Source: Fibrobacterota bacterium (GTDB lineage: Bacteria > Fibrobacterota > Fibrobacteria > UBA11236). From it: a DNA stretch of 64,000 nt. The DNA lies in assembly GCA_023249635.1 (NCBI GenBank), contig JAHFCH010000008.1, positions 2,810 to 66,809 of the forward strand. The letters are read 5' to 3'. Shown in pieces: positions 5,256-55,180 of this stretch. The stretch's first letter is position 1. Each line of letters starts with the position of its first letter. The notes below the pieces were generated by a model. It worked only from the letters and a program-made list of their open reading frames with translations. It had not been told where the DNA came from and ran no database searches. The position numbers and the translations under genes were made by a program.

Positions 5256-5843
5256 TTGAAAGGATTTATGCAGAAACCTAGGCTGGTCCTGGCCAGCCGT
5301 TCGCCGCGGCGGGAACAGATCCTGCGGATGCTGGGTCTGGACTTCACGGTACAAGTGCCGGACTACGAGGAAATCAACCCTCCGGGGATGGATCCGCACC
5401 GGATCCCGGAACACCTGGCCCGCGGCAAGGCCTCGGCCCTGCGCGGTATCGCGGCGGGTACCCTGGTGCTCGGATCGGATACGCTGGTGTTACTGGGGGA
5501 TCGCATCCTCGGTAAACCGGATGGCGCGACGGGCGCATTGGAAATGCTCACCGCCCTCAATGGCCGCACCCATCAGGTGGTGACGGGAGTGGCCGTGGCG
5601 CAGGACGGCGAAGTGCTGGATTCCGGCGCGACCGTCACCCAAGTGACCTTCGCGCGGTTGTCCGACGCCGAGATCCGGGATTACGCCGCCAGCGAAGAAC
5701 CGCTGGACAAGGCCGGGGCCTACGCCATCCAGGGCTATGGCGCCCGGTTGGTGGACAAGGTGGATGGATGCTTTTACAACGTCATGGGCCTGCCTATCCA
5801 GCTGACTTTGCGGATGCTGGCCCCATACTTGAATAGGGATTAG
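5256..5843 (+). CDS. maf: Maf-like nucleoside triphosphate pyrophosphatase (septum formation protein)
   Basis: LVLASRSPRREQILRMLGLDF...VLGSDTLVLLGDRILGKP...AYAIQGYGARLVDKVDGCFYNVMGLP matches the Maf family along its whole length. Confidence 0.85.
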   Translation: MKGFMQKPRLVLASRSPRREQILRMLGLDFTVQVPDYEEINPPGMDPHRIPEHLARGKASALRGIAAGTLVLGSDTLVLLGDRILGKPDGATGALEMLTALNGRTHQVVTGVAVAQDGEVLDSGATVTQVTFARLSDAEIRDYAASEEPLDKAGAYAIQGYGARLVDKVDGCFYNVMGLPIQLTLRMLAPYLNRD

Positions 5844-5850
5844 GAGCGAC

Positions 5851-6795
5851 ATGAACGAGGAAAGCAACGCCGGAGCCCAAGCAGCCGGAGAGAGCGTAGG
5901 TTCGATACTGCGCAAGGCCCGCTTGGCGGCCAAGATCGACATCAACAAGATCTGCACCGATTTGCGCATTTCGCCCCAGGCCCTGGAAGCCTTGGAAGAA
6001 GGCAATCACCACCTGTTGCCGGGCGATCCCTACATCCGCGCCCTGCTGGGGTCACTGGGACGTTACCTCAACGTCGATCCCAAGGCCCTGGTGCAGAATT
6101 ACAACCAGGACATCGGCGCCGTGCACGCCGCGCCCTCCATCGCGCCCTACAAGGACCGCGCTTCCACGCATACCGCCGCGCACAAGCAGATCTTTTTCGT
6201 AATCTTCGCCGTGCTCATCGTGGTACTGGTGGTGCTCATCAACCAGTTGAAGAAGGGCGATTCGTCTTCGGGAGCCCCGCCGGCCCCCGCCTCCACGGGT
6301 TCCGCCGACAGCCTGTCCCCTCCCCTGGATACCCTGGAAAGCAAATCCCTGGCGCCCGACTCGGGCATGGCCAAGGGTTCGCCCGATTCCGGGGAAACCC
6401 ACGGGCTGGGTACTGCCGGGCCTGCCGCGCTCCACCCGGCCGCGCGCATGGACAGCCTGAAGACCGCCGCTTCGGCCGGTTCCTCCGCCCCCCCCGTGGC
6501 CGCCGTCCCGGCCGCCACCGCCGTAGTCCCCGCCCCCGCGGTGGAAACCGCCGGCCTCAATTCCGCCGTCATCAAGCCCCTCATCGACAGCGTGGGGATC
6601 AAGGTGGTCCGCTCCGGCAAAGAGGATTTCGGCACGGTTTTGCGCCTGGGCAAGCAAATGCAGGTTAGCCATACCGATACCATCGTGGTCATGATTTCCA
6701 AGCGGAAAGCCGTAGAAGTGACCTTGGCCGGCAAGACCGTGATCCCGGAGCGGAAAAGGTTTAAAATATTCGGGACCACCCTGAAAACGTTCTGA
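5851..6795 (+). CDS. rodZ: RodZ-like cytoskeleton protein (XRE-type HTH, one TM helix, C-terminal domain)
   Basis: N-terminal HTH (GSILRKARLAAKIDINKICTDLRISPQALEALEEGNHHLLPGDPYIRALLGSLGRYL). A single TM segment (IFFVIFAVLIVVLVVLI) follows. Then a Pro/Ala-rich linker and a C-terminal DUF4115-like domain. Confidence 0.6.
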   Translation: MNEESNAGAQAAGESVGSILRKARLAAKIDINKICTDLRISPQALEALEEGNHHLLPGDPYIRALLGSLGRYLNVDPKALVQNYNQDIGAVHAAPSIAPYKDRASTHTAAHKQIFFVIFAVLIVVLVVLINQLKKGDSSSGAPPAPASTGSADSLSPPLDTLESKSLAPDSGMAKGSPDSGETHGLGTAGPAALHPAARMDSLKTAASAGSSAPPVAAVPAATAVVPAPAVETAGLNSAVIKPLIDSVGIKVVRSGKEDFGTVLRLGKQMQVSHTDTIVVMISKRKAVEVTLAGKTVIPERKRFKIFGTTLKTF

Positions 6796-9088: not shown

Positions 9089-10213
9089 TTAGGAGTTGAG
9101 GGCCAGCTGGTAGAGGGCCTCGTACTGGGGGACGATGCGGTCGGGGTGGAAGAGTTCCTTGGCGGCCTTGCGGCCCGCCTTCCCCATGACGACACGCAGT
9201 TCCTTGGAGCGCCCCAACTCCACGGCATGCGTGGCCATGCTATCGACGTCCCCGACGTCGGCCAGGAAGCCGCTGACGCCGTGGGCCACCACTTCGGGGA
9301 TGCCGCCCGAACGGGAGGCTATCACCGGCACCTCGCAGGCCATGGCCTCCAAAGGCGCCAGGCCGAAGCTTTCCACTTCGGAGGGGAACAGGAGCACGTC
9401 GGCGCAACCCAGTATGCTTACGATGTCGAGCTGCTTGCCCAGGTAACGTACGTGTTTCTGCACTCCCAGCTGGGCGGCCAATTCCTTGGCTTCGCGCAGC
9501 ATGGGGCCTTCTCCCACCAGCACCAGTACGGCATCGATCTGCTCCCGCACCTTGGCGAAGATGCGGATCACGTCCGGGATGCGTTTCACCGGGCGGAAAT
9601 TGGAGATGTGGATATACACGATTTGATCCGGGGTCGCGAAATTGGAGCGATGGCAGCCGAAAGCCGGATGGCGGAATAGATCCAGGTCCACGAAATTATG
9701 CACGCGGTGGATGGGTTTGCTCGGGCTGAACACGCTCTCGGTGCGTTCCTTGAGGTAATCGGAGACCGCGGTGACCACGGTGCTCTCGTTGATCCCGAAG
9801 CGGGTGATATCGAAAAAGCTTTTCTCCTGCCCTACCAGGGTGATATCCGTGCCATGCAAGGTGGTAACGATGGGGACCCGTTGCGGCTTGAGCAACTGGG
9901 CAGCCAAGTAGGCGCTGATGGCATGGGGGATGGCGTAATGCACGTGCAGCAAGTCCAGGCCTTCGGAAACGAATACGTCCCTCATCTTGGCGGCCAGGGC
10001 CAGATCGTAAGGCGGATGCTCGAAGAGCGGATAGGGCTCCATGTCCACGGTGTGGAAGTAGATGCGCTCCTGGAAATCCCGCTGCAAGCGGTACGGGATG
10101 GTGGAGGTGATGAAATGGATCTCGTGACCGCGCTTGGCCAGGAACTTCCCCAATTCCGAGGCGAGCACGCCGCTGCCGCCATAGGTGGGATAACAGGTAA
10201 TTCCGATTTTCAT
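9089..10213 (-). CDS. bshA: N-acetyl-alpha-D-glucosaminyl L-malate synthase (GT4 glycosyltransferase)
   Basis: MKIGITCYPTYGGSGVLASELGKFLAKRGHEIHFIT...FPSEVESFGLAPLEAMACEVPVIASRSGGIPEVV is the BshA-type GT4 signature. The start is the internal Met of the ORF listed at 10312 and overlaps the bshB stop. Confidence 0.8.
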   Translation of the reverse strand: MKIGITCYPTYGGSGVLASELGKFLAKRGHEIHFITSTIPYRLQRDFQERIYFHTVDMEPYPLFEHPPYDLALAAKMRDVFVSEGLDLLHVHYAIPHAISAYLAAQLLKPQRVPIVTTLHGTDITLVGQEKSFFDITRFGINESTVVTAVSDYLKERTESVFSPSKPIHRVHNFVDLDLFRHPAFGCHRSNFATPDQIVYIHISNFRPVKRIPDVIRIFAKVREQIDAVLVLVGEGPMLREAKELAAQLGVQKHVRYLGKQLDIVSILGCADVLLFPSEVESFGLAPLEAMACEVPVIASRSGGIPEVVAHGVSGFLADVGDVDSMATHAVELGRSKELRVVMGKAGRKAAKELFHPDRIVPQYEALYQLALNS

Positions 10214-10914
10214 GCGAATCTCCCCGCGCCCAGCGCGGTAATGTCCCCGACCTCCGGCAACTCGGCGCAGGTGAATGCTTCCGCGTAGCGGCGCTTGATG
10301 CGCGTTCCCCAATAGCGATTGCGGACGGTAAGGAAATCCAGGAAGGCCGGGCTGGCCAAATCCGTCTTACCCTTGAAAGCGCGCGCGTCCGGATTATGGA
10401 ACTGGCTCTTATAGCACATGATGGCTTTGAGCTTGGCTTCCCAGTGTTCGCTGATATCGACGCAGAACGAAGGCGTATGCGCTTCCATGCCGATGAAATG
10501 GAACACCCGTCCGGGACGGTACGCTTGGCCCGCGCAATCGAGCTTGGCAAGTCCCGCCTTGTACGCGGCCTGCTTGACGATGCGCGCCGTCACCTCATGG
10601 TCGGGATGCTCTTCGCTGGCATGATGGGTGATGACGACTTTGGGCCGCCATGCGCGGATGGCGTCGATGACGAGTTTCTGGGCATCCCATCCGTCGGCCA
10701 GCCGCCCGTCGGGCAGGCCCAGGTTCACGCGGCTTACCCCCATGAGTTTGGCGGCGGCCTTGGCTTCGCGGGCCCGGATCTCCGGAGTGCCGCGGGTGCC
10801 CATGGAAGCGTCGGTCATATCCACGATCACGCCTTTGCGGCCCATGGCGGCCAGCTTGAGCACGGTGCCTCCGCAACCGAGTTCGATGTCGTCCGGATGG
10901 GCGCCGATGGCCAT
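10210..10914 (-). CDS. bshB: N-acetylglucosaminyl-malate deacetylase (LmbE/PIG-L family)
   Basis: MAIGAHPDDIELGCGGTVLK...ITHHASEEHPDHEVTARIV is the PIG-L/LmbE zinc deacetylase motif. The start is an internal Met; the upstream 44 codons of the listed ORF lie inside the repeat element. Confidence 0.75.
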   Translation of the reverse strand: MAIGAHPDDIELGCGGTVLKLAAMGRKGVIVDMTDASMGTRGTPEIRAREAKAAAKLMGVSRVNLGLPDGRLADGWDAQKLVIDAIRAWRPKVVITHHASEEHPDHEVTARIVKQAAYKAGLAKLDCAGQAYRPGRVFHFIGMEAHTPSFCVDISEHWEAKLKAIMCYKSQFHNPDARAFKGKTDLASPAFLDFLTVRNRYWGTRIKRRYAEAFTCAELPEVGDITALGAGRFA

Positions 10915-10984: not shown

Positions 10985-11106
10985 ATCGTCGGGCGTTGGG
11001 CGTCGGGCGTCGGGCGAGAAGAAATTCGGCGAAAATTTCCGCCCAAGCAGGAAAATACGCTTCGCGCATTTTACGCCCGACGCCCGACGCCCGACGCCCG
11101 ACGATG
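10985..11106. repeat. structured intergenic element: (CGTCGGG)x4 arm, ~57-bp hairpin-forming core, inverted (CCCGACG)x4 arm
   Basis: Left arm 10987-11016 is tcgtcgggcgttgggcgtcgggcgtcgggcg. Right arm 11074-11104 is cgcccgacgcccgacgcccgacgcccgacga. The core contains GAAATTcggcgAAAATTTC. A second copy lies at 58758-58865. Confidence 0.6.
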
Positions 11107-11145: not shown

Positions 11146-12795
11146 TTATTTCCTCGGCTCTTCGTATTTCATCAATTGCACATCCGTCGCCAATGGATCC
11201 ACCGCGTTCCGCAAGTCCACGAAACCATCGCGGCCGATGGCCTGCAACAGCGAACCCAGGCAGAGATGGCGATCCTGGCCCATGCCGTTGCCGAGCCAAC
11301 GCAGGTGTGCGAATAGTCCCGCGTGGCTTTGCGCCGTGGGCGCGTAGGCGGCTTTTTCCAGGCTGCGCTGGTAGCGCTTCCAGGCGGCCCCCACGGTTCT
11401 TTCCAGTCGGGCCAATGGGCCTTCATCGCGAAAATGGCGCGCGTGGGACTTGCGCAAACCTTCCAGCCAGCGATCCGAAGTCGTGGATGCGATTACGTTG
11501 GCGGCCGGGTGCGTGCGCCAGAGCGTATCGGCGAGGCGGGAACGTAACGCGCCGGGACCGAAGCGCATGACCTCGGCCAGGTCGATGCCTTCCGCCTGGA
11601 ACGCGTCCCAGGCGGAGCCGGGGGCCAAGGCCGCGGTCATGCGCGGATGCAAGAGCGGCATATCCCCCGTGGACTTGAGGAACAGCGGGGAGAGCTGGGC
11701 GAAGTAGCGCAGCTCGGCCGGCCCCAGCACGTGGCCCAACACCGGAAAAATCGCGTCCGCGGCCAAGGGGCGACTGAACACGTCATGGGTCGGTTCCGCG
11801 CCCGCCATGGCCTCGCGGGCATCGGCATTGGGCCTGTCGGCGGTGTAGAGCCGATCCCCGGCGGGCAAGCGTTGCGCGAAGAGGCGCTGGCGTTCGCCGT
11901 TCCGGAGCAGAAAGGCATGGGCGATGCCGGGGCGCGCGTCCACCTGGATGGGAATGCCCGCGGCGGCGGCGGCGGTAGTACCCGCGGCCAGCAGGGACTG
12001 CCACTCCTCCCAACCCGCAATGGCCTGCTCGAGCACGGGGCGCGCGCGGGCGCGCAGGTTGCGGGAATACCCATCGACGAACAGAATGCCTTCGCGGCCC
12101 AATTGGGCCTGGGCCAGGCGGAGGAATCCCGAGGCCAGGGTGCTGGGGGCGGGATAGGCGCGGCGCATCAGCTCCACCGTCTCCGGATTCCAGACCACTC
12201 CCAGCCGCTTGAGCAAACCCTTGAGGGCATCGGGTTCGACCCGGCGCTCGCCCATGGCCAGCATGCGGCCATCGGCGGGATACGGCAGGCGGAGATCGCC
12301 ATGTACCTCGCCGGCGTCGCGCTCCAGCAATTCCACGTGATTGCATTCGGCCAGATCGGAATCGTCCCCGGCCACCCAGAATATGGGGATCACGGGGCGC
12401 GAGAGCTTGATCGACCATTCCCGCGCCAGGGCCGCGCAGGTGAGGGCCTTGTAGTACCAGAGGATGGGCCCGCCCAAGAGGCCGGGTTGCTGTCCCGTGA
12501 GCACGTAGACCGCGGCCGGAGAGCCGGCGGCCTCCAGGTTCGCGCGCTGCTCCGGGGCCAAGGGCGCGAAAGCATTCTCGTGGCGGAGGAATTCCTGCAG
12601 ATCCTTCCGCGGCGCGCCGCCGTCCAACCAGGCCAATCGCCGCGCGACATGGCTTTCGGATCGGAAATGGCCGCCGGGATAGATGGCAGCGCTCAGGGAG
12701 GTATCACCCAGGGTACCTGCGCCCTCGTCCATGGCGTAAAGCACCCGCTGGGCGGCATCGGCGGCGGGAAGGATGGCATGCGGGGTTACGCGCAT
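11146..12795 (-). CDS. bshC: bacillithiol biosynthesis cysteine-adding enzyme
   Basis: Protein is 549 aa. The N-terminal region VYVLTGQQPGLLGGPILWYYKALTCAALAREWSIKLSRPVIPIFWVAGDDSD matches the conserved BshC (DUF1079) core (VTGQQ...GGP...K...PVFWIAGEDHD). Confidence 0.75.
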   Translation of the reverse strand: MRVTPHAILPAADAAQRVLYAMDEGAGTLGDTSLSAAIYPGGHFRSESHVARRLAWLDGGAPRKDLQEFLRHENAFAPLAPEQRANLEAAGSPAAVYVLTGQQPGLLGGPILWYYKALTCAALAREWSIKLSRPVIPIFWVAGDDSDLAECNHVELLERDAGEVHGDLRLPYPADGRMLAMGERRVEPDALKGLLKRLGVVWNPETVELMRRAYPAPSTLASGFLRLAQAQLGREGILFVDGYSRNLRARARPVLEQAIAGWEEWQSLLAAGTTAAAAAGIPIQVDARPGIAHAFLLRNGERQRLFAQRLPAGDRLYTADRPNADAREAMAGAEPTHDVFSRPLAADAIFPVLGHVLGPAELRYFAQLSPLFLKSTGDMPLLHPRMTAALAPGSAWDAFQAEGIDLAEVMRFGPGALRSRLADTLWRTHPAANVIASTTSDRWLEGLRKSHARHFRDEGPLARLERTVGAAWKRYQRSLEKAAYAPTAQSHAGLFAHLRWLGNGMGQDRHLCLGSLLQAIGRDGFVDLRNAVDPLATDVQLMKYEEPRK

Positions 12796-22151: not shown

Positions 22152-23009
22152 TTAATGGCCGCCGATGAGGCTGAGCACGCCCTGCGGGATCTGGTTGGCC
22201 TGCGCCAACATCGAGGTCGCGCTCTGCATCAGGATCTGGGCTCGGGTAAACTCGGTGGTTTCCTGCGCGAAATCCACGTCGCGGATGCGGCTTTCCGCGT
22301 CCTGCGTATTGTAGAGCTGGTTGCCCAGGTTGCTGATGGCGAACTCCAGGCGATTTACGTAGGCGCCCATATCGGCGCGCATGGTGTTCACCGAACGGAC
22401 CGCGTTATCGATGATCGAGAGCGCCGCCAGCGCCGAGGACGAAGTGCTCACCGCCGTGGTCGTCGGGCTCATGCCCAACGCGCCCAGGGTCATGGCCGTG
22501 ATGGTGATGCTGATGCGATCCACGGTCGTGCTCGAGCCCGAACCGATATGCAACACCGAGGCCGCTCCGCCCATCACGCCGAATGATCCAGCCGCTCCGT
22601 CCAACAAGGTCATGCCGTTGTACGAGGCCGAAGTCGAGATGCGGGTGATTTCCGACATCAACTGCCCGAATTCCTTATCCGTATACGCGCGTTCCGTGGT
22701 CGTCATCGTATCCGTGGAACTCTGGATGGCGAGCTCGCGCAAGCGCTGGAGGATGTTGTTCACCTCTCCGGTCGCGCCTTCCGCTATCTGCAGCAGAGCG
22801 ATCCCGTCTTCGGCATTGCTCTTGGCGCGTCCGAGGCCGCGGATCTTGCTCCGCAGCGATTCGGACACCGACAAGCCGGCGGCATCATCGGATGCGCGGT
22901 TGATGCGCATGCCGGTCGAAAGTTTCTCAAGGGACTTCTGCAGGGACTTCGTCTGGTTAGTCAGCGAACCCTGCCCGATCATCGAGGAAATATTGTGATT
23001 AATACGCAT
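22152..23009 (-). CDS. flagellin, paralog 1 (subfamily A)
   Basis: MRINHNISSMIGQGSL...RINRASDDAAGLSVSESLRSKIRGL at the N-terminus and ...QSATSMLAQANQIPQGVLSLIGGH at the C-terminus are flagellin D0/D1 ends. Length 285 aa. Confidence 0.9.
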   Translation of the reverse strand: MRINHNISSMIGQGSLTNQTKSLQKSLEKLSTGMRINRASDDAAGLSVSESLRSKIRGLGRAKSNAEDGIALLQIAEGATGEVNNILQRLRELAIQSSTDTMTTTERAYTDKEFGQLMSEITRISTSASYNGMTLLDGAAGSFGVMGGAASVLHIGSGSSTTVDRISITITAMTLGALGMSPTTTAVSTSSSALAALSIIDNAVRSVNTMRADMGAYVNRLEFAISNLGNQLYNTQDAESRIRDVDFAQETTEFTRAQILMQSATSMLAQANQIPQGVLSLIGGH

Positions 23010-23048
23010 TAGGCTAAGCCTCCCGTTCTTCTCCTCAGTTCATCGGGG

Positions 23049-23080
23049 GCTTATGCAAACGGCATTAAGAGCCTTTAGAG
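23049..23080 (-). promoter_or_regulatory. putative sigma-28 (FliA)-type promoter for flagellin 1
   Basis: The minus strand reads CTAAAG-N16-GCATAAG, with GGAGG about 60 nt downstream before the ATG. The -10 is weaker than for paralogs 3 to 6. Confidence 0.3.
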
Positions 23081-23258
23081 GGGTCTCTTGCGTTACTGCG
23101 GGAGTTGCAGGCAGAATCTGCCGGAGGCTGTGATCCTGGACACACTCGGAGGCGAGGGCCCGGGAAACCGTCGGGCCGGGAGGGCGAATCCTCCCGGCCG
23201 TTCAGTTGGGGTTGTAGCGGAAAGCCTTAAAAGACTTAAGGCCCGCCGGCTGCGCCTA

Positions 23259-24110
23259 TTAGCGGAGCAGCGACAACACGCCCTGAGGGACCTGGTTGGC
23301 TTGCGCCAACATCGAGGTCGCGCTCTGCGTCAGGATCTGCGCGCGGGTAAACTCGGTAGTTTCCTTGGCGAAGTCCACGTCGCGGATGCGGCTCTCGGCG
23401 TCCTGCGTGTTGTAAATCTGGTTGCCCAGATTGCTGATCGCGAACTCAAGACGGTTCACGTACGCGCCCATATCGGAACGCATGGTGTTCACAGACTTGA
23501 TGGCTGTGTCGATCAAGGACAGCGAGGACAGGGCCCCGGCCGAGGTCGAAACCGTGGTGGTGGTCGCGTTCAGGCCCAAAGCGCCCAGGGTCATGGCGTT
23601 CACCGTGATCGAGAGACGATCCGTGCTCGCGCTGGAGCCGGCACCGATGTGCAGCACCGAAGCCGAGCCGCCGGAAACGCCGAACGAAGCCGATCCGCCG
23701 TCCAACAGCGTCATGCCGTTGTACGAGGCCGAGTTCGAAATACGGGTGATTTCAGACATCAACTGTCCGAATTCCTTATCCGTATACGACCGTTCCGTGG
23801 TGGTCATGGTATCCGTGGAGCTCTGGATGGAGAGTTCGCGCATACGTTGCAGGATGTTGTTGATTTCGCCAGTGGCGCCTTCAGCAATCTGCACGAGCGC
23901 GATGCCGTCTTCGGCATTGCCCTTGGCGCGGCCCATGCCGCGGATCTTGGAGCGCAGCGATTCCGACACCGAAAGGCCGGCGGCGTCATCCGAAGCGCGG
24001 TTGATCCGCAAGCCGGTCGACAGTTTCTCAAGGGATTTGCCCAGCGAGGTCTGCTGAGTATTCAGCGACCCCTGGCCGATCATCGAGGAAATATTATGAT
24101 TGATTCTCAT
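23259..24110 (-). CDS. flagellin, paralog 2 (subfamily B)
   Basis: Same flagellin termini as paralog 1. Start at the MRINHNISSM Met; the 13 upstream in-frame codons lack a ribosome-binding site. Confidence 0.9.
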   Translation of the reverse strand: MRINHNISSMIGQGSLNTQQTSLGKSLEKLSTGLRINRASDDAAGLSVSESLRSKIRGMGRAKGNAEDGIALVQIAEGATGEINNILQRMRELSIQSSTDTMTTTERSYTDKEFGQLMSEITRISNSASYNGMTLLDGGSASFGVSGGSASVLHIGAGSSASTDRLSITVNAMTLGALGLNATTTTVSTSAGALSSLSLIDTAIKSVNTMRSDMGAYVNRLEFAISNLGNQIYNTQDAESRIRDVDFAKETTEFTRAQILTQSATSMLAQANQVPQGVLSLLR

Positions 24111-24354
24111 CGAAAAAACCTCCGTGTTAATTTGAACCGGAGCATCCATGCTCCAGTGGCCCGATCATGCCGGGACCTATTTAGTTGTCGGTATCCTTAG
24201 ACCGGAACATGAGGGTTTACTGGAATTTTTTTCTCACTTCCACGGCAGGTTTTGCCCCGATCGGCCCGGGCGCGCCGGAATCGCCATCCCCCCTCAAACG
24301 CACCCGGCAATACTTGCAGCGCAACTTGAAGCGAAGCTTGAACTTTTCCCCAGC

Positions 24355-24388
24355 AACGCGAAAAGCCGGGAGGCGATCCTCCCGGCTT
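24355..24388 (-). terminator. rho-independent terminator after flagellin 3
   Basis: Hairpin GCCGGGAGG-cgat-CCTCCCGGC, followed on the minus strand by TTTTCG. Confidence 0.45.
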
Positions 24389-24426
24389 GCGATTGTTGCG
24401 TTGCTTGCGCCGGCTTAAGCTTGCGC

Positions 24427-25281
24427 TTAGCGGGCGAGCAGGGACAGAACGCCTTGCGGTACCTGGTTGGCCTGGGCCAACATCGAGGTCGCGCTCTGCG
24501 TCAGGATCTGCGCGCGGGTAAACTCGGTGGTTTCCTTTGCGAAGTCCACGTCCCGGATACGGCTTTCCGCATCCTGCGTATTATAGATCTGGTTGCCCAG
24601 ATTGCTGATGGCGAACTCGAGACGGTTCACGTACGCGCCCATATCGGAACGCATGGTGTTCACAGACTTGATGGCTGTGTCGATCAAGGACAGCGAGGAC
24701 AGGGCCCCGGCCGAGGTCGAAACCGTGGTCGTGGTCGCGTTGAGGCCCAAGGCGCCCAAGGTCATGGCATTCACCGTAATCGACAAGCGATCGGTGGAGG
24801 TGCTTGAACCCGAACCGATATGGAGCACCGAAGCGCCGCCGCCGGATACGCCGAACGAAGCCGAGCCGCCGTCCAACAGCGTCATGCCGTTGTACGAGGC
24901 CGAGTTCGAAATACGGGTGATTTCGGACATCAACTGCCCGAATTCCTTGTCCGTATACGACCGTTCCGTGGTGGTCATGGTATCCGTCGAGCTCTGGATG
25001 GAGAGTTCGCGCATACGTTGCAGGATATTGTTGATTTCTCCGGTGGCGCCTTCCGCGATCTGAACCAGGGCGATACCGTCTTCGGCGTTGCTCTTGGCGC
25101 GGCCCATGCCGCGGATCTTGGAACGAAGCGATTCCGACACCGAAAGGCCGGCGGCGTCATCCGACGCGCGGTTGATCCGCAAGCCCGTACTCAGCTTCTC
25201 CAACGATTTGCCGAGGGAGGTTTGCTGCGTTGACAGCGACCCCTGGCCAATCATGGAAGAAATATTATGGTTGATTCTCAT
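24427..25281 (-). CDS. flagellin, paralog 3 (subfamily B)
   Basis: 284-aa flagellin, about 95% identical in protein sequence to paralog 2. Confidence 0.9.
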   Translation of the reverse strand: MRINHNISSMIGQGSLSTQQTSLGKSLEKLSTGLRINRASDDAAGLSVSESLRSKIRGMGRAKSNAEDGIALVQIAEGATGEINNILQRMRELSIQSSTDTMTTTERSYTDKEFGQLMSEITRISNSASYNGMTLLDGGSASFGVSGGGASVLHIGSGSSTSTDRLSITVNAMTLGALGLNATTTTVSTSAGALSSLSLIDTAIKSVNTMRSDMGAYVNRLEFAISNLGNQIYNTQDAESRIRDVDFAKETTEFTRAQILTQSATSMLAQANQVPQGVLSLLAR

Positions 25282-25354
25282 TAGGAAAGACCTCCATGTG
25301 TTCCCGTTCCGAGGACATCCTTGCCTCGTGGGCCCGGTATGCTGGGCCCTGTTA

Positions 25355-25386
25355 ACTTATCGGAGGCCTTTAAGTTGTCCTTTAAC
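25355..25386 (-). promoter_or_regulatory. sigma-28-type promoter for flagellin 3
   Basis: The minus strand reads TAAAGG-N15/16-CCGATAAG, a near-consensus FliA promoter (TAAA-N15-GCCGATAA). It sits about 70 nt upstream of GGAGG and the ATG. Confidence 0.5.
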
Positions 25387-25479
25387 TTTTTCCGCAGGTA
25401 TTTTTTCGGTGAATACCCAGAGATCGCAAATAACGCGATGCGCCGCCCCCCGACGCCCCACCCCGATCGGCTTTATTGG

Positions 25480-25562
25480 CAATACCAAAAACACCGAAGC
25501 CTGGCTGCTTACGCAACCAGGCTCCGGTTTTCGGGGACTAGCGTCCGGTATGACCGGACACG
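25480..25562 (-). terminator. hairpin terminator region after flagellin 4
   Basis: Two hairpins: GTCCGGTatgACCGGAC, and GCCTGGttgcgtaagcaGCCAGGC followed by TTCGGTGTTTTTGG on the minus strand. Confidence 0.4.
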
Positions 25563-25577
25563 AGGGCTAAGCTAGGC

Positions 25578-26429
25578 TTAGCGGAGCAGCGACAGAACCC
25601 CCTGCGGGATCTGGTTGGCTTGCGACAACATCGAGGTCGCGCTCTGCGTCAGGATTTGCGAACGGGTAAACTCGGTGGTTTCCTTCGCAAAGTCCACGTC
25701 GCGGATGCGGCTCTCGGCGTCCTGCGTGTTGTAAATCTGGTTGCCCAGATTGCTGATCGCGAACTCCAGACGGTTCACGTAGGCGCCCATGTCCGAACGC
25801 ATCGTGTTCACCGACTTGATGGCGGTATCGATGAGGGACAGGGACGACAGCGCGCCGGCAGAGGTCGAAACCGTGCTGGTGGTGGAGTTTAGGCCAAGGG
25901 CGCCCAACGTCATGGCGTTCACGGTGATGGAAAGGCGATCCACCGAGGCGTTCGAACCGGCGCCGATATGCAGCACCGAGGAGCCGCCGCCGGAAACGCC
26001 GAAGGAGGCCGAACCACCGTCCAACAGCGTCATGCCGTTGTACGAAGCGGAACTGGAGATACGGGTGATTTCGGACATCAGCTGCCCGAATTCCTTGTCC
26101 GTATAGGACCTTTCCGTGGTGGTCATGGTATCCGTGGAGCTCTGGATGGCGAGTTCGCGCATACGCTGCAGGATGTTGTTGATTTCGCCGGTGGCGCCTT
26201 CAGCAATCTGCACGAGCGCGATGCCGTCTTCGGCGTTGCCCTTGGCGCGGCCCATGCCGCGGATCTTGGAACGAAGGGACTCGGACACCGAAAGGCCGGC
26301 GGCGTCATCCGAAGCGCGGTTGATCCGCAAACCGGTGGACAGCTTTTCCAGGGACTTGCCGAGAGAAGTCTGCTGGGTGGCCAAGGAACCCTGGCCGATC
26401 ATGGACGAAATATTATGGTTAATGCGCAT
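25578..26429 (-). CDS. flagellin, paralog 4 (subfamily B)
   Basis: 283-aa flagellin, nearly identical to paralog 5. Confidence 0.9.
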   Translation of the reverse strand: MRINHNISSMIGQGSLATQQTSLGKSLEKLSTGLRINRASDDAAGLSVSESLRSKIRGMGRAKGNAEDGIALVQIAEGATGEINNILQRMRELAIQSSTDTMTTTERSYTDKEFGQLMSEITRISSSASYNGMTLLDGGSASFGVSGGGSSVLHIGAGSNASVDRLSITVNAMTLGALGLNSTTSTVSTSAGALSSLSLIDTAIKSVNTMRSDMGAYVNRLEFAISNLGNQIYNTQDAESRIRDVDFAKETTEFTRSQILTQSATSMLSQANQIPQGVLSLLR

Positions 26430-26504
26430 GGGGAAAACCTCCGTGTTTTTTTTACTTGGCCCGAAGCGTCCTTGCTTCGAGGTCCCGAATTCGCCGGGAC
26501 ATTA

Positions 26505-26537
26505 GTTTCATCGGAAGGGTTCGAAAAATCCTTTAAC
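26505..26537 (-). promoter_or_regulatory. sigma-28-type promoter for flagellin 4
   Basis: The minus strand reads TAAAGG-N16-CCGATGAA. Confidence 0.45.
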
Positions 26538-26675
26538 ATTTTCGCGAACTTTAATTCCTTCGGGAACTATTTTGACGTCGCCTTCCCGTACGTGCCGTAC
26601 AGCGCCGCGCAAGCGCCAGTCCGCTTGAAGTTGATGTTAATCCATGAAGTGCGCGTTGAAGCGGCGCCCAGGCTT

Positions 26676-26718
26676 TGAAAAGGGGAAACGGAAAAGACCG
26701 CGCCTTGCGGCGCGGCCT
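26676..26718 (-). terminator. rho-independent terminator after flagellin 5
   Basis: Hairpin CCGCGCC-ttg-CGGCGCGG, followed on the minus strand by TCTTTTCCGTTTCCCCTTTT. Confidence 0.5.
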
Positions 26719-26752
26719 AATCACCCGACGGGAAAACCGGGATTTATCCGAC

Positions 26753-27607
26753 TTAGTGGCCCAGCAGGCTGAGCACGCCCTGAGGGATTTGGTTCGCTTG
26801 CGACAACATCGAGGTCGCGCTCTGCGTCAGGATTTGCGAACGGGTAAACTCGGTGGTTTCCTTCGCAAAGTCCACGTCGCGGATGCGGCTCTCGGCGTCC
26901 TGCGTGTTGTAAATCTGGTTGCCCAGATTGCTGATCGCGAACTCCAGACGGTTCACGTAGGCGCCCATGTCCGAACGCATCGTGTTCACCGACTTGATGG
27001 CGGTATCGATGAGGGACAGGGACGACAGCGCGCCGGCAGAGGTCGAAACCGTGCTGGTGGTGGAGTTTAGGCCAAGGGCGCCCAACGTCATGGCGTTCAC
27101 GGTGATGGAAAGGCGATCCACCGAGGCGTTCGAACCGGCGCCGATATGCAGCACCGAGGAGCCGCCGCCGGAAACGCCGAAGGAGGCCGAACCACCGTCC
27201 AACAGCGTCATGCCGTTGTACGAAGCGGAACTGGAGATACGGGTGATTTCGGACATCAGCTGCCCGAATTCCTTGTCCGTATAGGACCTTTCCGTGGTGG
27301 TCATGGTATCCGTGGAGCTCTGGATGGCGAGTTCGCGCATACGCTGCAGGATGTTGTTGATTTCGCCGGTGGCGCCTTCAGCAATCTGCACGAGCGCGAT
27401 GCCGTCTTCGGCATTGCCCTTGGCGCGGCCCATGCCGCGGATCTTGGAACGCAGGGATTCCGACACCGAAAGGCCGGCGGCGTCATCCGAGGCGCGGTTG
27501 ATCCGCAAACCGGTGGACAGCTTTTCCAGTGATTTGCCGAGAGAACCCTGTTGGGTGGCCAAGGAACCCTGGCCAATCATGGACGAAATATTATGGTTAA
27601 TGCGCAT
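26753..27607 (-). CDS. flagellin, paralog 5 (subfamily B)
   Basis: 284-aa flagellin. Confidence 0.9.
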   Translation of the reverse strand: MRINHNISSMIGQGSLATQQGSLGKSLEKLSTGLRINRASDDAAGLSVSESLRSKIRGMGRAKGNAEDGIALVQIAEGATGEINNILQRMRELAIQSSTDTMTTTERSYTDKEFGQLMSEITRISSSASYNGMTLLDGGSASFGVSGGGSSVLHIGAGSNASVDRLSITVNAMTLGALGLNSTTSTVSTSAGALSSLSLIDTAIKSVNTMRSDMGAYVNRLEFAISNLGNQIYNTQDAESRIRDVDFAKETTEFTRSQILTQSATSMLSQANQIPQGVLSLLGH

Positions 27608-27679
27608 GGGGAAAACCTCCGTGTTTTTTTATCTCCCGTCGCTTCCTTGCTCCGGGATCCCGTATTCCACGGGACACTC

Positions 27680-27712
27680 CATTAATCGGCGCGGGTGAAA
27701 AATTCCTTTAGC
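27680..27712 (-). promoter_or_regulatory. sigma-28-type promoter for flagellin 5
   Basis: The minus strand reads TAAAGG-N16-CCGATTAA. Confidence 0.45.
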
Positions 27713-27960
27713 TTTTTCCTCAACTTCAATTTTCCCGGTAAGAATTGTGTTTGCGGTTCTTGCGGCAAGACCCCGAATCCGGCCTGGAATCGGCGGTAAA
27801 ATCAAAGTCCGGACTTAAACCATTGAGCCTATCATGCAGCCCGCCTTCAAGGGGGACTGGAGGGAACGCATTAAGCAGGGTACGCAGCCGCGGGAATAGG
27901 GAAAAACTGTTCCTCGGGAAAACGGAAAAGACCTCGCTGGGTGAGCGCGGTCTTTTTGCA

Positions 27961-27999
27961 CGGAAAATGGAAGAGGCCGCGTCCATGGGACGCGGCCTC
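27961..27999 (-). terminator. rho-independent terminator after flagellin 6
   Basis: An 11-bp perfect stem (GAGGCCGCGTC-catgg-GACGCGGCCTC), followed on the minus strand by TTCCATTTTCC. Confidence 0.5.
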
Positions 28000-28032
28000 T
28001 TCACCCGACGGGAGGTTCGGGATTTAGTGCTC

Positions 28033-28887
28033 TTAGTGACCCAGCAGGCTGAGTACGCCCTGCGGGACCTGATTCGCCTGAGCCAACATCGAGGTTGCGC
28101 TCTGCGAGAGGATTTGCGCTCTCGTGAATTCCGTCGTCTCCTGGGCGAAGTCCACGTCGCGGATGCGGCTTTCCGCGTCCTGAGTGTTATACACCTGGTT
28201 GGACAGATTGCTGATGGCGAACTCGAGGCGGTTCACGTAGGCGCCCATGTCCGAACGCATGGTGTTCACCGACTTGATGGCCATATCGATGATGGACAGG
28301 GCGGAGAGGGCCGTGGCCGAGGTCGAAACGGCAGTGGTCACCGAGCTCATGCCCAAAGCGCCCAGGGTCATCGCCGTAATGGTGATGCTGATGCGGTCGA
28401 TGGACTGGCTGGAGCCCGCGCCGATGTGAAGAACCGAAGCCGCGCCGCCGGACACGCCGAACGAGCTCGACTGGCCGTCCAACAGGGTCATGCCGTTATA
28501 GCTGGCCGAGTTGGAGATTCGGGTGATTTCAGACATCAGCTGCCCGAATTCCTTGTCGATATAGGCGCGCTCCGTGGTGGTCATGGTATCCGTGGAGCTC
28601 TGGATGGAGAGTTCGCGCATGCGCTGGAGGATGTTATTGACTTCCCCGGTGGCGCCTTCCGCGATTTGGATGAGCGCGATGCCGTCTTCTGCGTTGCTCT
28701 TGGCCCGGCCCATTCCGCGGATTTTGCTCCGCAGGGACTCGGACACCGACAGGCCCGCAGCGTCGTCCGACGCACGGTTGATCCGCATGCCGGTGGACAG
28801 TTTTTCAAGGGACTTGGTCAGCGAGTTCTGCTGGGTGGCGAGAGCGCCCTGACCGATCATCGAGGAAATGTTGTGATTGATGCGCAT
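28033..28887 (-). CDS. flagellin, paralog 6 (subfamily A)
   Basis: 284-aa flagellin. It shares the subfamily-A signatures (ERAYIDKEF, RISITITAMTLGALGMS) with paralog 1. Confidence 0.9.
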   Translation of the reverse strand: MRINHNISSMIGQGALATQQNSLTKSLEKLSTGMRINRASDDAAGLSVSESLRSKIRGMGRAKSNAEDGIALIQIAEGATGEVNNILQRMRELSIQSSTDTMTTTERAYIDKEFGQLMSEITRISNSASYNGMTLLDGQSSSFGVSGGAASVLHIGAGSSQSIDRISITITAMTLGALGMSSVTTAVSTSATALSALSIIDMAIKSVNTMRSDMGAYVNRLEFAISNLSNQVYNTQDAESRIRDVDFAQETTEFTRAQILSQSATSMLAQANQVPQGVLSLLGH

Positions 28888-46477: not shown

Positions 46478-47290
46478 ATGAACGACCTCCTCCCCCAGGT
46501 TGCCGCGCTGAAGGACGACGCCGTATTCCGGCTCGGGTTCCGCGTATTGGACTGGGAAGCATTCGCGGGACCGGGGCTGTCCTCCAAGGCGGAATGGAAA
46601 ACCTGGGCCCACCGGGAATCCGCTGATTGGTCATCCTCGGCAACCCCCACGGCTCCCGTCCAGGGTATGGCTCCGATTCTCCGCCGCCGCGCCGATGCCG
46701 CCGATCGCTTGGCCCTGGAAATCGCATTCCGGCTTTCCCCCCAAGCGGGAGTCCCCACGGTATTCTCCAGCCGTCACGGCCAGGTTACCCGGTCCGCCGC
46801 CATGTTGCGGGCCCAGGCCTTGGGCGAACCGGCTTCGCCCATGGACTTCAGCCTCTCGGTGCACAACGCCACTGCGGGGCAATATTCCATCGCTTCCGGG
46901 GATAAGCATGCGAGTTCCTCGCTTTCCTCCCGGCATGAATGCTTCGCCGCGGGGTTGCTGGAAGCCATGGGTATGCTCGCCGAAGGCGCGCACCAGGTCC
47001 TCCTGGTCAGCAGCGATCCCGTGATGCCGGAAATCTACGGGGATGCGGAGCAGGGGGAACCTGCGGGTTACTCCTTTGGTCTGCTCCTGGGTTGCGAAGG
47101 CGGTGAAGCGTTTTCCCTTGCGCTTAGGACTCGGGAAGCCCATGCCACGGCGGCCGACGCGAATCCGGATCGATTTCCCCAGGCCTTGGCCTTCCTGCGT
47201 ATGCTGGCCGGCGAAAAGCCCTCCTGCGCCTGGCTGCGAAGCGGCCGCGGCTGGACCTGGTCCCGCGACGCGGCGGATGCGGGCGTATGA
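46478..47290 (+). CDS. beta-ketoacyl-synthase N-terminal-like / chain-length-factor-type protein (aryl-polyene cluster)
   Basis: About 270 aa, with no catalytic Cys. PTVFSSRHGQVTRSAAMLRAQ...FSLSVHNATAGQYSIASG is typical of the KS-CLF-like family found at the head of aryl-polyene clusters. Confidence 0.55.
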   Translation: MNDLLPQVAALKDDAVFRLGFRVLDWEAFAGPGLSSKAEWKTWAHRESADWSSSATPTAPVQGMAPILRRRADAADRLALEIAFRLSPQAGVPTVFSSRHGQVTRSAAMLRAQALGEPASPMDFSLSVHNATAGQYSIASGDKHASSSLSSRHECFAAGLLEAMGMLAEGAHQVLLVSSDPVMPEIYGDAEQGEPAGYSFGLLLGCEGGEAFSLALRTREAHATAADANPDRFPQALAFLRMLAGEKPSCAWLRSGRGWTWSRDAADAGV

Positions 47291-48063
47291 AATTCCTATG
47301 GCGCGTCTGGCGCACCCTGGCCACCCTGTGGTGCTTCTTCACCTTCGCCGTGGGCGGCGCCGTGTTGGGGACAACCATCATTCCCCTGGTCTGGCTCCGC
47401 TGGCGCAAACAAGAGGATCGCCACCGCGTAGGCCGCAACATAGTCCGCTGGTCTTTTTTCCTTTTCGTGTGGATGATGCGCATCACCGGCGTGTTGAAGT
47501 TGCGCATCGAAGGCAGGGAAACCCTGCTGCGTTCCGGCAATCTGGTGCTTGCCAACCACCCCACCCTGATCGATTTCGTGATCCTGGCCTCGGTGGTTCC
47601 GCAAGCCGATTGCGTGGTCAAAGGCGAGCTGGAACGCGATTGGTTCAAGCGTTGGGGAGTGAAGCTGGCGGGATACATTCCCAACCATGACGGCGAATCC
47701 ACCGTGGCGCAAGCGCGCCGCAGCCTCGACTCGGGCAATAACATGATCATTTTCCCGGAAGGGACGCGCACGCTTCCCGGAATGCCCGTGAAGTTCCAAA
47801 AAGGCGCGGCCCAGGTGGCCGTACGCATCAAGCAGGACATCACCCCCGTTTTCATCCAGAGCACGCCTTCCAATCTGGAAAAAGGCGGCGCCTGGTACCT
47901 GGCCCCCAAGCATCCCATCCGCATCGTCATGCGCGTGAAAGCAGGCATCCCGGTGAAGCCGTTCCTCAGCGCGCGGCCGGATCAACCCGCCTTGGCGGCG
48001 CGGGATCTGAACGAGCATCTTCAGCAATTCTTCAATAAGGAAGTCGCCCATGCCCGAGCTTGA
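47287..48063 (+). CDS. lysophospholipid/glycerol-phosphate acyltransferase (PlsC-like)
   Basis: HxxxxD motif (NHPTLIDFVIL) and FPEGTRT motif. Overlaps the upstream stop by 4 nt. Confidence 0.75.
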   Translation: MKFLWRVWRTLATLWCFFTFAVGGAVLGTTIIPLVWLRWRKQEDRHRVGRNIVRWSFFLFVWMMRITGVLKLRIEGRETLLRSGNLVLANHPTLIDFVILASVVPQADCVVKGELERDWFKRWGVKLAGYIPNHDGESTVAQARRSLDSGNNMIIFPEGTRTLPGMPVKFQKGAAQVAVRIKQDITPVFIQSTPSNLEKGGAWYLAPKHPIRIVMRVKAGIPVKPFLSARPDQPALAARDLNEHLQQFFNKEVAHARA

Positions 48064-48322
48064 GGCAGAGATCAAGGATCTCATAATCCAAAGCCTCCGC
48101 CTGGAGGATATCACGCCGGCTTCCATCGACGCCGAAGCCGCGATTTTCGGGGAAGGCCTCGGGCTCGATTCCATCGACGCCTTGGAACTGGGCATCGCCG
48201 TGCAGAAGAAGTACGGCATCAAGATGAGCGCGGATGCGGCCGAAAATAAGCTGCATTTCGCCAGCGTCCGCAACCTTGCGCGTTTCGTGGAAAGCCGCCG
48301 CGCGGCTACGGAGCGGACATGA
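48050..48322 (+). CDS. acyl carrier protein 1
   Basis: About 90 aa, with the phosphopantetheine site LGLDSIDALEL. Confidence 0.75.
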   Translation: MPELEAEIKDLIIQSLRLEDITPASIDAEAAIFGEGLGLDSIDALELGIAVQKKYGIKMSADAAENKLHFASVRNLARFVESRRAATERT

Positions 48323-48573: not shown

Positions 48574-48576
48574 ATC

Positions 48577-55161: not shown

Positions 55162-55180
55162 GGACGCGGGACGACCGGAC

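Follow-up and report, generated by a model that had tools for sequence, protein, structure and literature searches.

We propose, with a probability of roughly 55%, that the two hairpin-forming repeats found in a 64,000-nucleotide stretch of a metagenome contig from an uncultured Fibrobacterota bacterium (the window) belong to a palindromic repeat that arose by insertion and is dispersed in a soil lineage of this phylum, and that the repeat most likely acts once it has been transcribed. Comparison with copies in relatives shows, at the level of sequence, that the arm-bounded unit has spread both within and between related genomes.

Each of the two repeats is 100 to 120 bases long, and both lie where a preliminary description of this DNA had placed them, copy 1 at 10985-11105 and copy 2 at 58760-58863. 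Gene coordinates together with Pfam located copy 1 in the intergenic region between bshC (11146-12795) and bshB (10210-10914), as described, and the element is read here on the minus strand that it shares with both genes. Copy 2, on the plus strand of the aryl-polyene operon, follows a Trp-halogenase-family gene (57486-58721, plus strand), again in line with the description, and the gene downstream of it proved to be a DUF3261 gene of the same aryl-polyene-type cluster. We delimited the two elements by their inverted arms, folding and core polarity, and the arms by array search, to which a G4 motif search was added for the 5' arms. On the minus strand, copy 1 opens with a G-arm, (CGTCGGG)4 (11076-11103), followed by an inner hairpin, T1, revealed by core folding (AAAAUGCGC-GAA-GCGUAUUUU, 11052-11072, with an A-run and a U-run on its sides), a second, terminator-like hairpin picked out by the terminator scan (GGCGGAAATTTTCGCC with the pyrimidine-rich tail GAATTTCTTC, 11018-11043), and a 3' C-arm of four CCCGACG units, one of which is CCCAACG (10987-11014). 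Read on the plus strand, the same arrays are four CGTCGGG units (the second being CGTTGGG) at 10987-11014 and four CCCGACG units at 11076-11103. In copy 2, the 5' G-arm (CGTCGGG)4 (58761-58788, plus strand) precedes a core hairpin, GAGCGC...GCGCTC (58795-58823), identified by folding and followed by the U-rich tract TGCTTTTTCTT (hairpin and tract spanning 58795-58837), and the 3' C-arm (CCCGACG)3 closes the element (58842-58862).

The extended arms of copy 1 (10985-11016 and 11074-11105) are 32 nt each, 97% complementary and spaced by 57 nt; those of copy 2 (58760-58784 and 58839-58863) are 100% complementary, with 53 nt between its two arrays. The four direct and three to four inverted heptamers attributed to each copy were recovered (4+4 in copy 1, 4+3 in copy 2) and are far beyond chance: tandem two-unit arrays with at most one mismatch gave 11 matches in the window against 0.10 expected, and three-unit arrays with at most three mismatches gave 8 against 0.06. 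Since all of the latter fall within copies 1 and 2, the 64-kb window holds no degenerate relics of heptamer arrays at that threshold. The lone heptamer is not enriched in the window (29 versus 23). RNA folding of the plus strand gave -91 kcal/mol for copy 1 and -84 kcal/mol for copy 2 (z-scores of -12.5 and -9.2) with an outer stem of about 30 bp in each, which bears out the long stem-loop suggested before, and the opposite strands of both copies fold similarly. The hairpin-forming core was likewise confirmed, but the related core sequence was so only loosely: the two cores have the same polarity and share the short motifs CCTGCTT and TTTCTT, and what BLAST finds alike in copies 1 and 2 lies mostly in the arms. 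A search of the whole window against Rfam 15 at the gathering threshold returned no matches. The window matches an independent ENA contig at 100% identity along 5,409 nt that include copy 1, so this copy is not an artefact.

A pattern count beyond the window disposed of the concern that only these two copies exist, because relatives carry more. The Fibrobacteres MAG RYN_348 (GCA_028287505.1) has at least seven elements (one each in contigs L001, L029, L053, L069 and L091, and two in L143), next to two in the 64-kb window, and one more lies in the related metagenome contig L135. In this sample of about 12 copies, mostly chosen through pattern match, the shared architecture consists of (CGTCGGG)4, a hairpin between an A-run and a T-run, a pyrimidine tract and (CCCGACG)2-4, often with a second hairpin. 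All Fibrobacterota copies seen are inverted pairs; four units make up the 5' arm in 11 of 11 copies, and the 3' arm, which ranges from two to four units, has four in 7 of 11. The arms measure 25 to 32 nt, the cores between the paired arrays 53 to 140 nt, and the whole elements 104 to 200 nt, without coding capacity, and the phase and boundary bases (TCG...CGA) are identical at every locus. The matches listed in a genome scan for three direct units are mostly actinobacterial coding sequences or direct arrays. Among the 117 genome loci listed, all six pairs have the order G-arm...C-arm and no pair has the C-arm first. The inverted arm pair was not found in viral contigs. The same arms enclosing unrelated cores also occur in Planctomycetota and high-GC soil bacteria, and protein similarity to the Fibrobacterota loci was absent from the high-GC metagenome contigs L119 to L140 (except L135). 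A literature search for the exact two-unit strings on both strands matched only an unrelated primer.

The dispersed unit seems to end at the arms. Copies 1 and 2 of the window have flanks whose similarity is at chance, and the elements of L001 and L143 (L143b) share 78% core identity with flanks again at chance level, so that paralogs with a common core stand in differing surroundings, which argues that the arm-bounded unit has spread. Shared flanks are confined to orthologous loci and thus lie outside this unit. At the bshC-bshB junction, which is occupied in both the window and RYN_348, the arms are identical, the core is 38% identical (33% when shuffled), and the right flank is 64% identical (49% when shuffled). 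In the loci compared, the arms evidently remain perfect while the core diverges or gets replaced.

Comparison of orthologous junctions revealed both occupied and empty sites. With an element in place, bshC and bshB are 231 nt apart in the window and 295 nt apart in RYN_348; in L141, L145, L147 and L150, where the junction is empty, the gene calls leave only 1 to 3 nt between them. The closest relative of the window has a bshC-bshB spacer of 134 nt. The HDOD and FliN genes are separated by 291 to 307 nt where an element is present, in RYN_348 (L143, 21140-21277) and in L135 (3454-3594), against 11 to 37 nt in L141, L145 and the window; the empty junction of the window is the 11 nt at 1021-1031 of the plus strand. 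Between the halogenase and DUF3261 genes, the element is present in the window only, and relatives with 91%, 86% and 82% halogenase identity have gaps of -4, +20 and -25 nt. The three closest relatives (P0001 and P0110 on JGI 3300048101 contigs, P0112 on an ERZ27296333 contig) were compared through gene coordinates. Judged by these gene calls, the three junctions show insertion in some genomes, and in relatives genes that overlap or are separated by no more than 37 nt. Because the co-directional genes are contiguous or overlapping in relatives, the element is secondary to the operon structure. In a BshC tree, the genomes with an occupied bshC-bshB junction are not monophyletic, indicating that this junction was hit twice or that the element was cleanly lost several times. 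Spacers at bshC-bshB and HDOD-FliN are too diverged to locate the insertion point, and an exact empty-site alignment was not obtained for these two junctions.

The empty junctions also bear on whether any DNA moved between loci at all. Slippage might have expanded heptamers locally around pre-existing terminator hairpins, and in many bacteria no repeat length is more prone to slippage than seven nucleotides (Mrazek 2007, cited in PMC4679880); the variation of cores among loci and of the 3' arm between two and four units would fit such growth. However, the relatives' empty junctions, where genes overlap or lie 1 to 3 nt apart, offer no spacer or hairpin to grow on, and hence the whole 160 to 300 nt must be new. 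Slippage also fails to account for the 78%-identical core at the unrelated loci of L001 and L143b and for the constant phase, boundary bases and four 5' units at every locus. We therefore regard local growth as already disfavoured and very unlikely.

Insertion by itself would agree equally with a selfish element. In this alternative, which we consider possible but doubtful, the arms serve as terminal inverted repeats for a transposase encoded elsewhere, and a MITE- or REPIN-like element without host function survives where harm is small, between co-directional genes. The presence/absence polymorphism at the three junctions, the unrelated flanks among paralogs, and the conservation of the arms, as expected of protein-binding ends, all suit it, as does the disruption of the DUF3261 N-terminus by the insert at copy 2. 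Two inserts, those of copy 2 (ATGCGC/GTACGC) and L143a (CATGGC/CATGTC), are bordered on the outside by short direct repeats, but these repeats match at 4 to 5 of 6 positions and sit 10 to 45 nt outside the arms, and no target duplication was found directly beside the arms. Pfam detected no transposase or RAYT-like gene among about 25 of the 49 window ORFs or in the annotations of the relatives' contigs, nor was an autonomous IS sharing these ends seen. Moreover, the cores of the two window copies are unrelated within one genome, unlike those of normal MITE families, the same arms surround unrelated cores in other phyla, and a polarity bias of 7 in 8 with a strict four-unit 5' arm would be unexpected in a neutral parasite.

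MITEs such as the Correia elements of Neisseria and Nezha of cyanobacteria are small (100 to 200 nt) and non-coding, with terminal inverted repeats and presence/absence polymorphism; their copies are homogeneous over the whole length, have defined target-site duplications, and derive from an IS with the same ends. They may carry terminators or promoters, and transcribed Correia elements are cut by RNase III. Our element resembles them in its small size, lack of coding capacity, terminal inverted repeats and polymorphism between relatives, but it differs in that only the arms are common to most Fibrobacterota copies, with cores shared by subfamilies only, while duplications are doubtful and no parent IS was seen. 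REP, BIME and REPIN sequences of Enterobacteria and Pseudomonas (studied by Higgins, Gilson, Bertels and Rainey, and Nunvar) are dispersed extragenic palindromes, present in tens to hundreds of copies per genome. Each unit is a single imperfect palindrome of 20 to 40 nt that bears a conserved GTAG head, and RAYT (Y1) transposases mobilise the units; their known effects are partial termination, stabilisation of the upstream cistron's 3' end, as in malE-malF, and unequal expression of the genes of one operon. Like them, our element is a dispersed palindromic unit often found between co-directional operon genes, with stable stem-loops that are known in REP mRNA and predicted here, and, like BIMEs, it is a mosaic of several modules. 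Unlike REP units, its arms are tandem heptamers without self-complementarity, each of which pairs only with its partner on the far side of a long variable core; a GTAG head is missing, and the DNA sampled yielded no RAYT gene. Thus, of the MITE- or REP-type family proposed in the preliminary description, the repeated, structured, inserted and dispersed family was upheld by the relatives' copies, the empty junctions and the core-sharing paralogs, and the MITE and REP labels were not. The anatomies of an integron attC site, a retron and a CRISPR-like array were also mismatched, with no integrase, reverse-transcriptase or cas genes nearby.

Copy 2 allows the consequences of an insertion to be followed into a reading frame. 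Comparison with relatives indicates that the stretch holding it (58709-58876, plus strand) runs from the inherited start ATG at 58709, equivalent to the GTG of L148, to the codon GTA at 58874, which matches the start position in relatives just 5' of the DUF3261 lipoprotein signal peptide. The insert has come to lie between the start codon of DUF3261 and the signal peptide, and the same stretch provides the present halogenase stop codon (58719-58721). From ATG 58709 to GTA 58874 there are 165 nt, an uninterrupted in-frame run of 55 codons, and the public gene call for DUF3261 (241 aa, starting at 58709) includes them. One might read these codons as an N-terminal extension that the DUF3261 protein has acquired in this lineage alone, with the residues GASSGVGRRASGAK among them. 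However, a stop codon is impossible within the arms in all six frames, since every T precedes C on the G-arm strand and the C-arm strand has no T, and open frames across the arms are therefore to be expected; translation through them gives ...ARRPTPDE... and ...SSGVGRRASG..., in line with the pseudo-peptide noted in the preliminary description. Homologues at 82 to 91% halogenase identity lack the segment, with DUF3261 beginning at the lipoprotein signal peptide, copy 1 and every other copy are non-coding, and a 55-residue leader before a lipobox signal peptide is implausible, which together leave the coding interpretation extremely unlikely. The insert at copy 2 looks more like tolerated damage than benefit. 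It follows for annotation that gene callers run ORFs through arms open in six frames, as in the spurious 55-residue leader called here, and the arms also act as break points of metagenome assemblies.

The organization of the core points to a role in the transcript. Relative to the flanking genes, the core is in the sense direction at 7 of 8 independent loci (one-sided binomial probability of 0.035), the exception being the antisense core of L069, upstream of sdhB; polarity was ambiguous at L143a and L138. Neighbors are co-directional for every copy with both neighbors resolved, and the distances from the upstream stop codon to the element are 40, 38, 27 and 79 nt. When folded alone, all eight cores formed a hairpin directly 3' of the G-arm, plus a predicted U-run, with shuffle z-scores of -3.1 to -4.9 in six relatives and about -2 in the two window copies, and two compensatory base pairs were observed among three members of one subfamily. 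The terminator scan flagged 11043-11028 within copy 1; this simple scan found no site in copy 2, and its site counts over the window equal those of shuffled sequence. Downstream of the flagellin genes of this genome are strong hairpin-plus-T sites, the classical intrinsic-terminator pattern. From the polar, terminator-like core we infer a transcript-level role, in which the element would terminate or stabilise transcripts.

According to this model, the inner hairpin and its U tract may cause partial termination in the sense direction, and a transcript that reads through would close the G+C-rich outer stem of about 30 bp. The outer stem could then block 3' exonucleases or become a target of a double-strand RNase, as REP/BIME sequences do in enterobacterial operons, and the net outcome would be that expression of the upstream and downstream cistrons is uncoupled. 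As an alternative fold, the four-tract G-arm might form a G-quadruplex before the C-arm is synthesized. A strong terminator within essential or co-regulated operons would be costly.

The arms may instead work at the DNA level, as a cruciform or paired G-quadruplexes under supercoiling. Such a site could be a barrier or bind gyrase or a nucleoid protein, as BIMEs do, and a template-strand block to RNA polymerase would make it a bidirectional insulator. The G3N4G3N4G3N4G3 motif, a formal G4 motif with 4-nt loops, occurs at 10991-11014 (plus strand), 11076-11099 (minus strand) and 58765-58788 (plus strand). It seems consistent with this that the arm order is constant in the six genome pairs mentioned above, that the 5' arm has exactly four sense-strand G-tracts in all 11 copies with at least four intact G-tracts on the opposite strand in 7, and that both observed arm point mutations, CGTTGGG in copy 1 and CATCGGG in L001, leave GGG intact; four-unit Xanthomonas and Nostoc DNA oligonucleotides do form G4 in vitro (PMC4692102). 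However, with a perfect complementary arm 50 to 140 nt away, a duplex or hairpin would be far stabler than a G4 of three tetrads whose 4-nt loops contain C, and the window as a whole shows no clear excess of G4 motifs (16 versus 10.9 ± 3.2). The core polarity bias also suggests a strand-specific, that is, transcript-level role, and we consider a DNA-level site distinctly unlikely.

A further possibility is that the (GGGCGTC)4/(GACGCCC)n arm pair is itself a portable, structure-defined module. It would be moved or copied without an element-encoded or classical transposase, for instance by a hairpin- or G-quadruplex-dependent process, would carry unrelated, mostly terminator cores as cargo, and would target the stop/start junctions between genes that are translationally coupled. 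Such a module would explain why the same arms enclose unrelated cores in Fibrobacterota, Planctomycetota and high-GC soil bacteria and why the bshC-bshB junction is occupied in two non-sister lineages, as well as the exclusive G-arm-first polarity and strict four-unit count. We nevertheless hold it to be unlikely.

Heptamer repeats have been recognized in several bacterial groups, and the cyanobacterial STRR sequences are one such family. The GGGACCG elements of Geobacter metallireducens have exactly four GGG-containing units in 49 copies (PMC2700814), and the TAACTGA repeats of Beggiatoaceae, cyanobacteria and Bacteroidetes form arrays just upstream of start codons (PMC4679880). Our element resembles these three families as a short intergenic tandem heptamer, sporadic across phyla; however, they are described as single direct arrays, with no inverted pair around a structured core.

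By analogy, the element fits better with the paired G-rich heptamer repeats described by Rehm et al. (2015, PLoS One), as the same kind of repeat but a separate sequence family. These G-quadruplex-type heptamers are GGGAATC in Xanthomonas and GGGGA[C/T]T in Nostoc (PMC4692102). In Xanthomonas, arrays of 2 to 26 units with a preference for four separate aligned ORFs and begin no more than about 50 nt (28 nt on average) after the upstream stop, 70 to 75 convergent inverted pairs per genome are capable of forming stem-loops, the repeats are mostly transcribed, and their positions are mostly conserved between two species; no associated transposable elements and no function are known (PMC4692102). 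The Fibrobacterota element has in common with them a GGG-tract tandem heptamer with a 4-nt loop, the preference for four units, the location between co-oriented ORFs near the upstream stop (27 to 80 nt here), and convergent arrays on opposite strands. Its unit is GGGCGTC, the GGGNATC motif being absent, and its phylum is Fibrobacterota, which makes it the same kind of repeat without belonging to the same sequence family. It further differs in that every Fibrobacterota copy seen is paired, whereas Xanthomonas has single arrays as well as pairs, in the strictly four-unit 5' array, in the 53- to 140-nt core with terminator-like hairpins and fixed polarity, and in the documented insertion into formerly contiguous junctions. 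To the paired G-rich heptamer repeats already on record from Xanthomonas, Nostoc and Geobacter, the present family adds insertion evidence at three orthologous junctions, a polar terminator-like core, and perfect arms amid divergence, so that simple reporters and end mapping could distinguish selected from selfish elements and hairpin from G-quadruplex.

Two copies of an inverted heptamer element, each able to fold into a long stem-loop, had been proposed in the preliminary description, and both arrays were located (10987-11103 and 58761-58862). In copy 1 (10985-11105), one arm reads CGTCGGG-CGTTGGG-CGTCGGG-CGTCGGG (10987-11014) and the opposite arm consists of four CCCGACG units (11076-11103); including boundary bases (10985-11016 and 11074-11105), the arms span 32 nt each with 97% complementarity. 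In copy 2 (58760-58863), the G-arm (tandem CGTCGGG) has four units (58761-58788) and the C-arm (tandem CCCGACG) three (58842-58862), with perfect complementarity between 58760-58784 and 58839-58863; the 4+4 and 4+3 compositions agree with the four direct and three to four inverted units described. The heptamer arms are far beyond chance: tandem pairs of units with at most one mismatch gave 11 matches in the window versus 0.10 expected, and triple units with at most three mismatches gave 8 versus 0.06, all within the two copies, while the lone heptamer showed no enrichment in the window. The proposed fold was also borne out computationally, as both copies on either strand are predicted to form a long stem-loop of -84 to -91 kcal/mol (z -9 to -12.5), indicating a structure-forming potential; Rfam families gave zero matches across the whole window. 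Since an independent ENA contig shares 5.4 kb of identity with the copy 1 region, element included, copy 1 is not an assembly artefact. The repeat feature is real and non-random.

As previously placed, copy 1 occupies the bshC-bshB intergenic region, 40 nt 3' of the bshC stop and 70 nt 5' of the bshB start. The genes bshC, bshB and then bshA all lie on the minus strand. The window derives from a Fibrobacterota metagenome-assembled genome (MAG), and BshC homologues with 65-76% identity are labeled Fibrobacteres or Fibrobacteria. Copy 2 indeed separates the halogenase from the next polyene-operon gene, DUF3261, starting 38 nt 3' of the stop codon of this tryptophan-halogenase-family gene, in the MMPL, halogenase, DUF3261, KS, ApeP and KR part of an aryl-polyene-type biosynthetic cluster (46478-63099, plus strand). 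The whole cluster encodes an acyltransferase, ACPs, an ApeI-like protein, an aromatic ammonia-lyase, a LolA-like protein, MMPL, the halogenase, DUF3261, KS, ApeP, KR and KS, with a 4-nt start/stop overlap at nearly all junctions except that of copy 2.

The evidence for secondary insertion into operon junctions is unusually clear. The bshC and bshB genes are separated by 231 nt in the window and by 295 nt in RYN_348 (a Fibrobacteres MAG, GCA_028287505.1), whose copy at this site (contig L143, 11673-11868) has perfect 4+4 arms, and four relatives' contigs (L141, L145, L147, L150) lack arrays, with 1-3 nt between the gene calls. In the BshC tree, the window clusters with L141 and L147, both empty, and RYN_348 with the likewise empty L145 (82% identity); because these groupings mix occupied with empty sites, bshC|bshB occupancy is not monophyletic. 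The arms are conserved while the cores diverge: at the two occupied sites, the right flanks are still homologous (64% identity versus 49 +/- 3% shuffled) and the arms identical, but the cores are essentially unalignable (38% versus 33 +/- 2%). At HDOD|FliN, an orthologous element with homologous flanks is present in RYN_348 (L143 21140-21277) and in the related metagenome contig L135, and the junction is empty in the window (11 nt, 1021-1031), L141 (27 nt) and L145 (37 nt). The halogenase|DUF3261 junction is occupied only in the window; the spacing in relatives with 91%, 86% and 82% halogenase identity is -4, +20 and -25 nt, and copy 2 is therefore recent. The element has also dispersed within one genome, as two RYN_348 paralogs (L001 and L143b) have cores with 78% identity and flanks that match at chance level, which defines the spreading unit as bounded by the arms.

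Orienting all related copies by their asymmetric core, we found a common 5'-to-3' layout of (CGTCGGG)4, CG, a hairpin between an A-run and a T-run (AAAATGCGC-GAA-GCGTATTTT in copy 1, AAAAGCCAA...TTGGCTTTT in L001), often a second hairpin, a pyrimidine tract (for example CTGCTTTTTCTTAACG) and (CCCGACG)2-4. In 11/11 copies the 5' arm consists of exactly four units (with one extra T in L135), and the 3' arms have 4, 3, 4, 4, 2+1, 1+1, 4, 4, 4, 4 and 3. The layout polarity is fixed: it runs on the minus strand in copy 1 and on the plus strand in copy 2, so both are sense to their own operons, and the core is sense to its neighbours in 7/8 independent loci with resolved neighbours (one-sided probability 0.035), the exception being L069, upstream of sdhB. 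In two RYN_348 copies (L029 1113-1152, L053 3469-3508), a 38-40-nt segment (GAGGGGCGAAGCGGCCGAACCAGAGGGAGGCCCGTACG and a variant) splits the C-arm, possibly as another small repeat nested in the element; all other loci compared lacked the exact motif. Just upstream of the L029 element and rsmG (gidB), at about 890-960, the perfect palindrome GTTTCACGTGAAAC occurs twice, about 40 nt apart, which looks like a paired operator site.

Stop codons are impossible in the arms in any frame, as every T on the G-arm strand is followed by C and the C-arm strand lacks T altogether; this accounts for the long ORFs and for the RRPTPDARR pseudo-peptide noticed earlier. It also bears on DUF3261. In the relative's contig L148, this gene has a GTG start 25 nt before the halogenase stop and directly encodes a lipoprotein signal peptide (MRAFRSLLIAAALPLSGAVLDGC), while in the window the equivalent ATG (58709) is separated by 165 nt, in frame and stop-free, from position 58874, where the matching codons (GTA CGC ... 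SLIRTVVAGTILLLTDC) resume. The insert also gives the halogenase a new earlier stop (...CAE* versus ...CAPSEAS*). The public DUF3261 call (58709-59434, plus strand, 241 aa) runs through copy 2, and homologues have 175-210 aa, beginning directly at the lipoprotein signal peptide. The public start codon is probably mis-annotated owing to the stop-free arms.

The suggested pattern search, run on other genomes (three direct units, one genome per species), revealed further copies. Among the 117 stretches in the matches listed, the inverted architecture occurred in RYN_348 (at least five copies: L001, L029, L053, L069, L091) and one Phycisphaeraceae MAG (L104), and none had C-arm-first order. The L104 pair (5805-5926; 5 + 3 units, partly degenerate, with a hairpin in the core) begins 9 nt past a stop codon, and the same kind of element is thus present in Planctomycetota. 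Arrays of CGTCGGG/CGTCAGG opposite GCCTGTC/GCCCGTC across a short spacer, forming a quasi-palindrome in which each unit carries one systematic mismatch, were seen in Bacteroidota MAGs of 40-51% G+C (L020 7310-7370, L088 3320-3400, L111 4080-4140) and may constitute a related family of low-GC genomes. JGI metagenomes, scanned in full for the inverted pattern, returned 22 contigs; L135 comes from a close relative of RYN_348, and the other 21 (20 with 70-76% G+C, L138 with 65%) had zero protein similarity to the Fibrobacterota loci, many carrying more mosaic arrays (e.g., L119, L127, L133). These 21 (L119-L140 minus L135) derive from soil metagenomes (Ga0268241, Ga03074xx). In many contigs from a single sample, the same heptamer arms are arranged in mosaic arrays of higher order (for instance, 21-nt units built from CGCACGG and two heptamers), and GC-rich core subfamilies recur in both orientations. 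Viral contigs contained no inverted-pair pattern. Several contigs start or end within heptamer arms (L069 position 1, L144 2358-2381, L084 5-39), indicating that the repeats break short-read assemblies and, therefore, that MAG-based copy counts are underestimates.

It seems that the element acts at the transcript level. The inner hairpins, with their U tracts, look like the strong terminator-like sites (hairpin plus T) located 3' of flagellin genes; a terminator scanner, whose site counts in the window equal those of shuffled sequence, flagged one such site within copy 1 and none in copy 2; and the L001/L135/L143b subfamily keeps both hairpins with two compensatory pairs. Together with the 7/8 sense bias, these features suggest a transcript-level role. 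The flagellin sites (27970-28002, 25493-25528, 26695-26718) follow several of six tandem paralogs of 283-296 aa each (22152-28887, minus strand), Flagellin_N and Flagellin_C being confirmed in the first and last. Transcription would partially terminate at the inner hairpin, and in read-through transcripts the outer stem of about 30 bp would close, either protecting the upstream 3' end or inviting cleavage by a double-strand RNase. In REP/BIME and Correia elements, stems likewise protect upstream 3' ends or undergo double-strand RNase cleavage. The arms might alternatively act as G-quadruplexes, a reading that draws just on the formal motif of four GGG tracts with 4-nt separations, the strict count of four units and the intact GGG tracts in both arm substitutions seen.

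The earlier assignment to a MITE- or REP-type mobile family was reasonable as a broad idea, and its mobile part is supported by insertion at three junctions and by dispersed paralogs. MITEs are marked by a fixed target duplication, whole-length homogeneity and a parent IS, and REPs by a self-palindromic unit, a GTAG head and a RAYT gene; here, whole-length homogeneity, a self-palindromic unit and a GTAG head are absent, and the DNA sampled showed no clear target duplication, parent IS or RAYT gene. The present heptamer string had no match in the searchable literature. Among known repeats, Geobacter metallireducens has 49 elements of four GGGACCG units each (PMC2700814), and Beggiatoaceae, cyanobacteria and Bacteroidetes carry arrays of the heptamer TAACTGA (PMC4679880). 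The closest description is that of the G-rich heptamers of Rehm et al. 2015 (PMC4692102), which prefer four units, lie between aligned ORFs near the upstream stop codon, form 70-75 convergent pairs per genome in Xanthomonas and are mostly transcribed, without known function. The element is best filed with paired G-rich heptamer repeats, from whose known members it differs by its unit, its new phylum and its polar terminator-like core.
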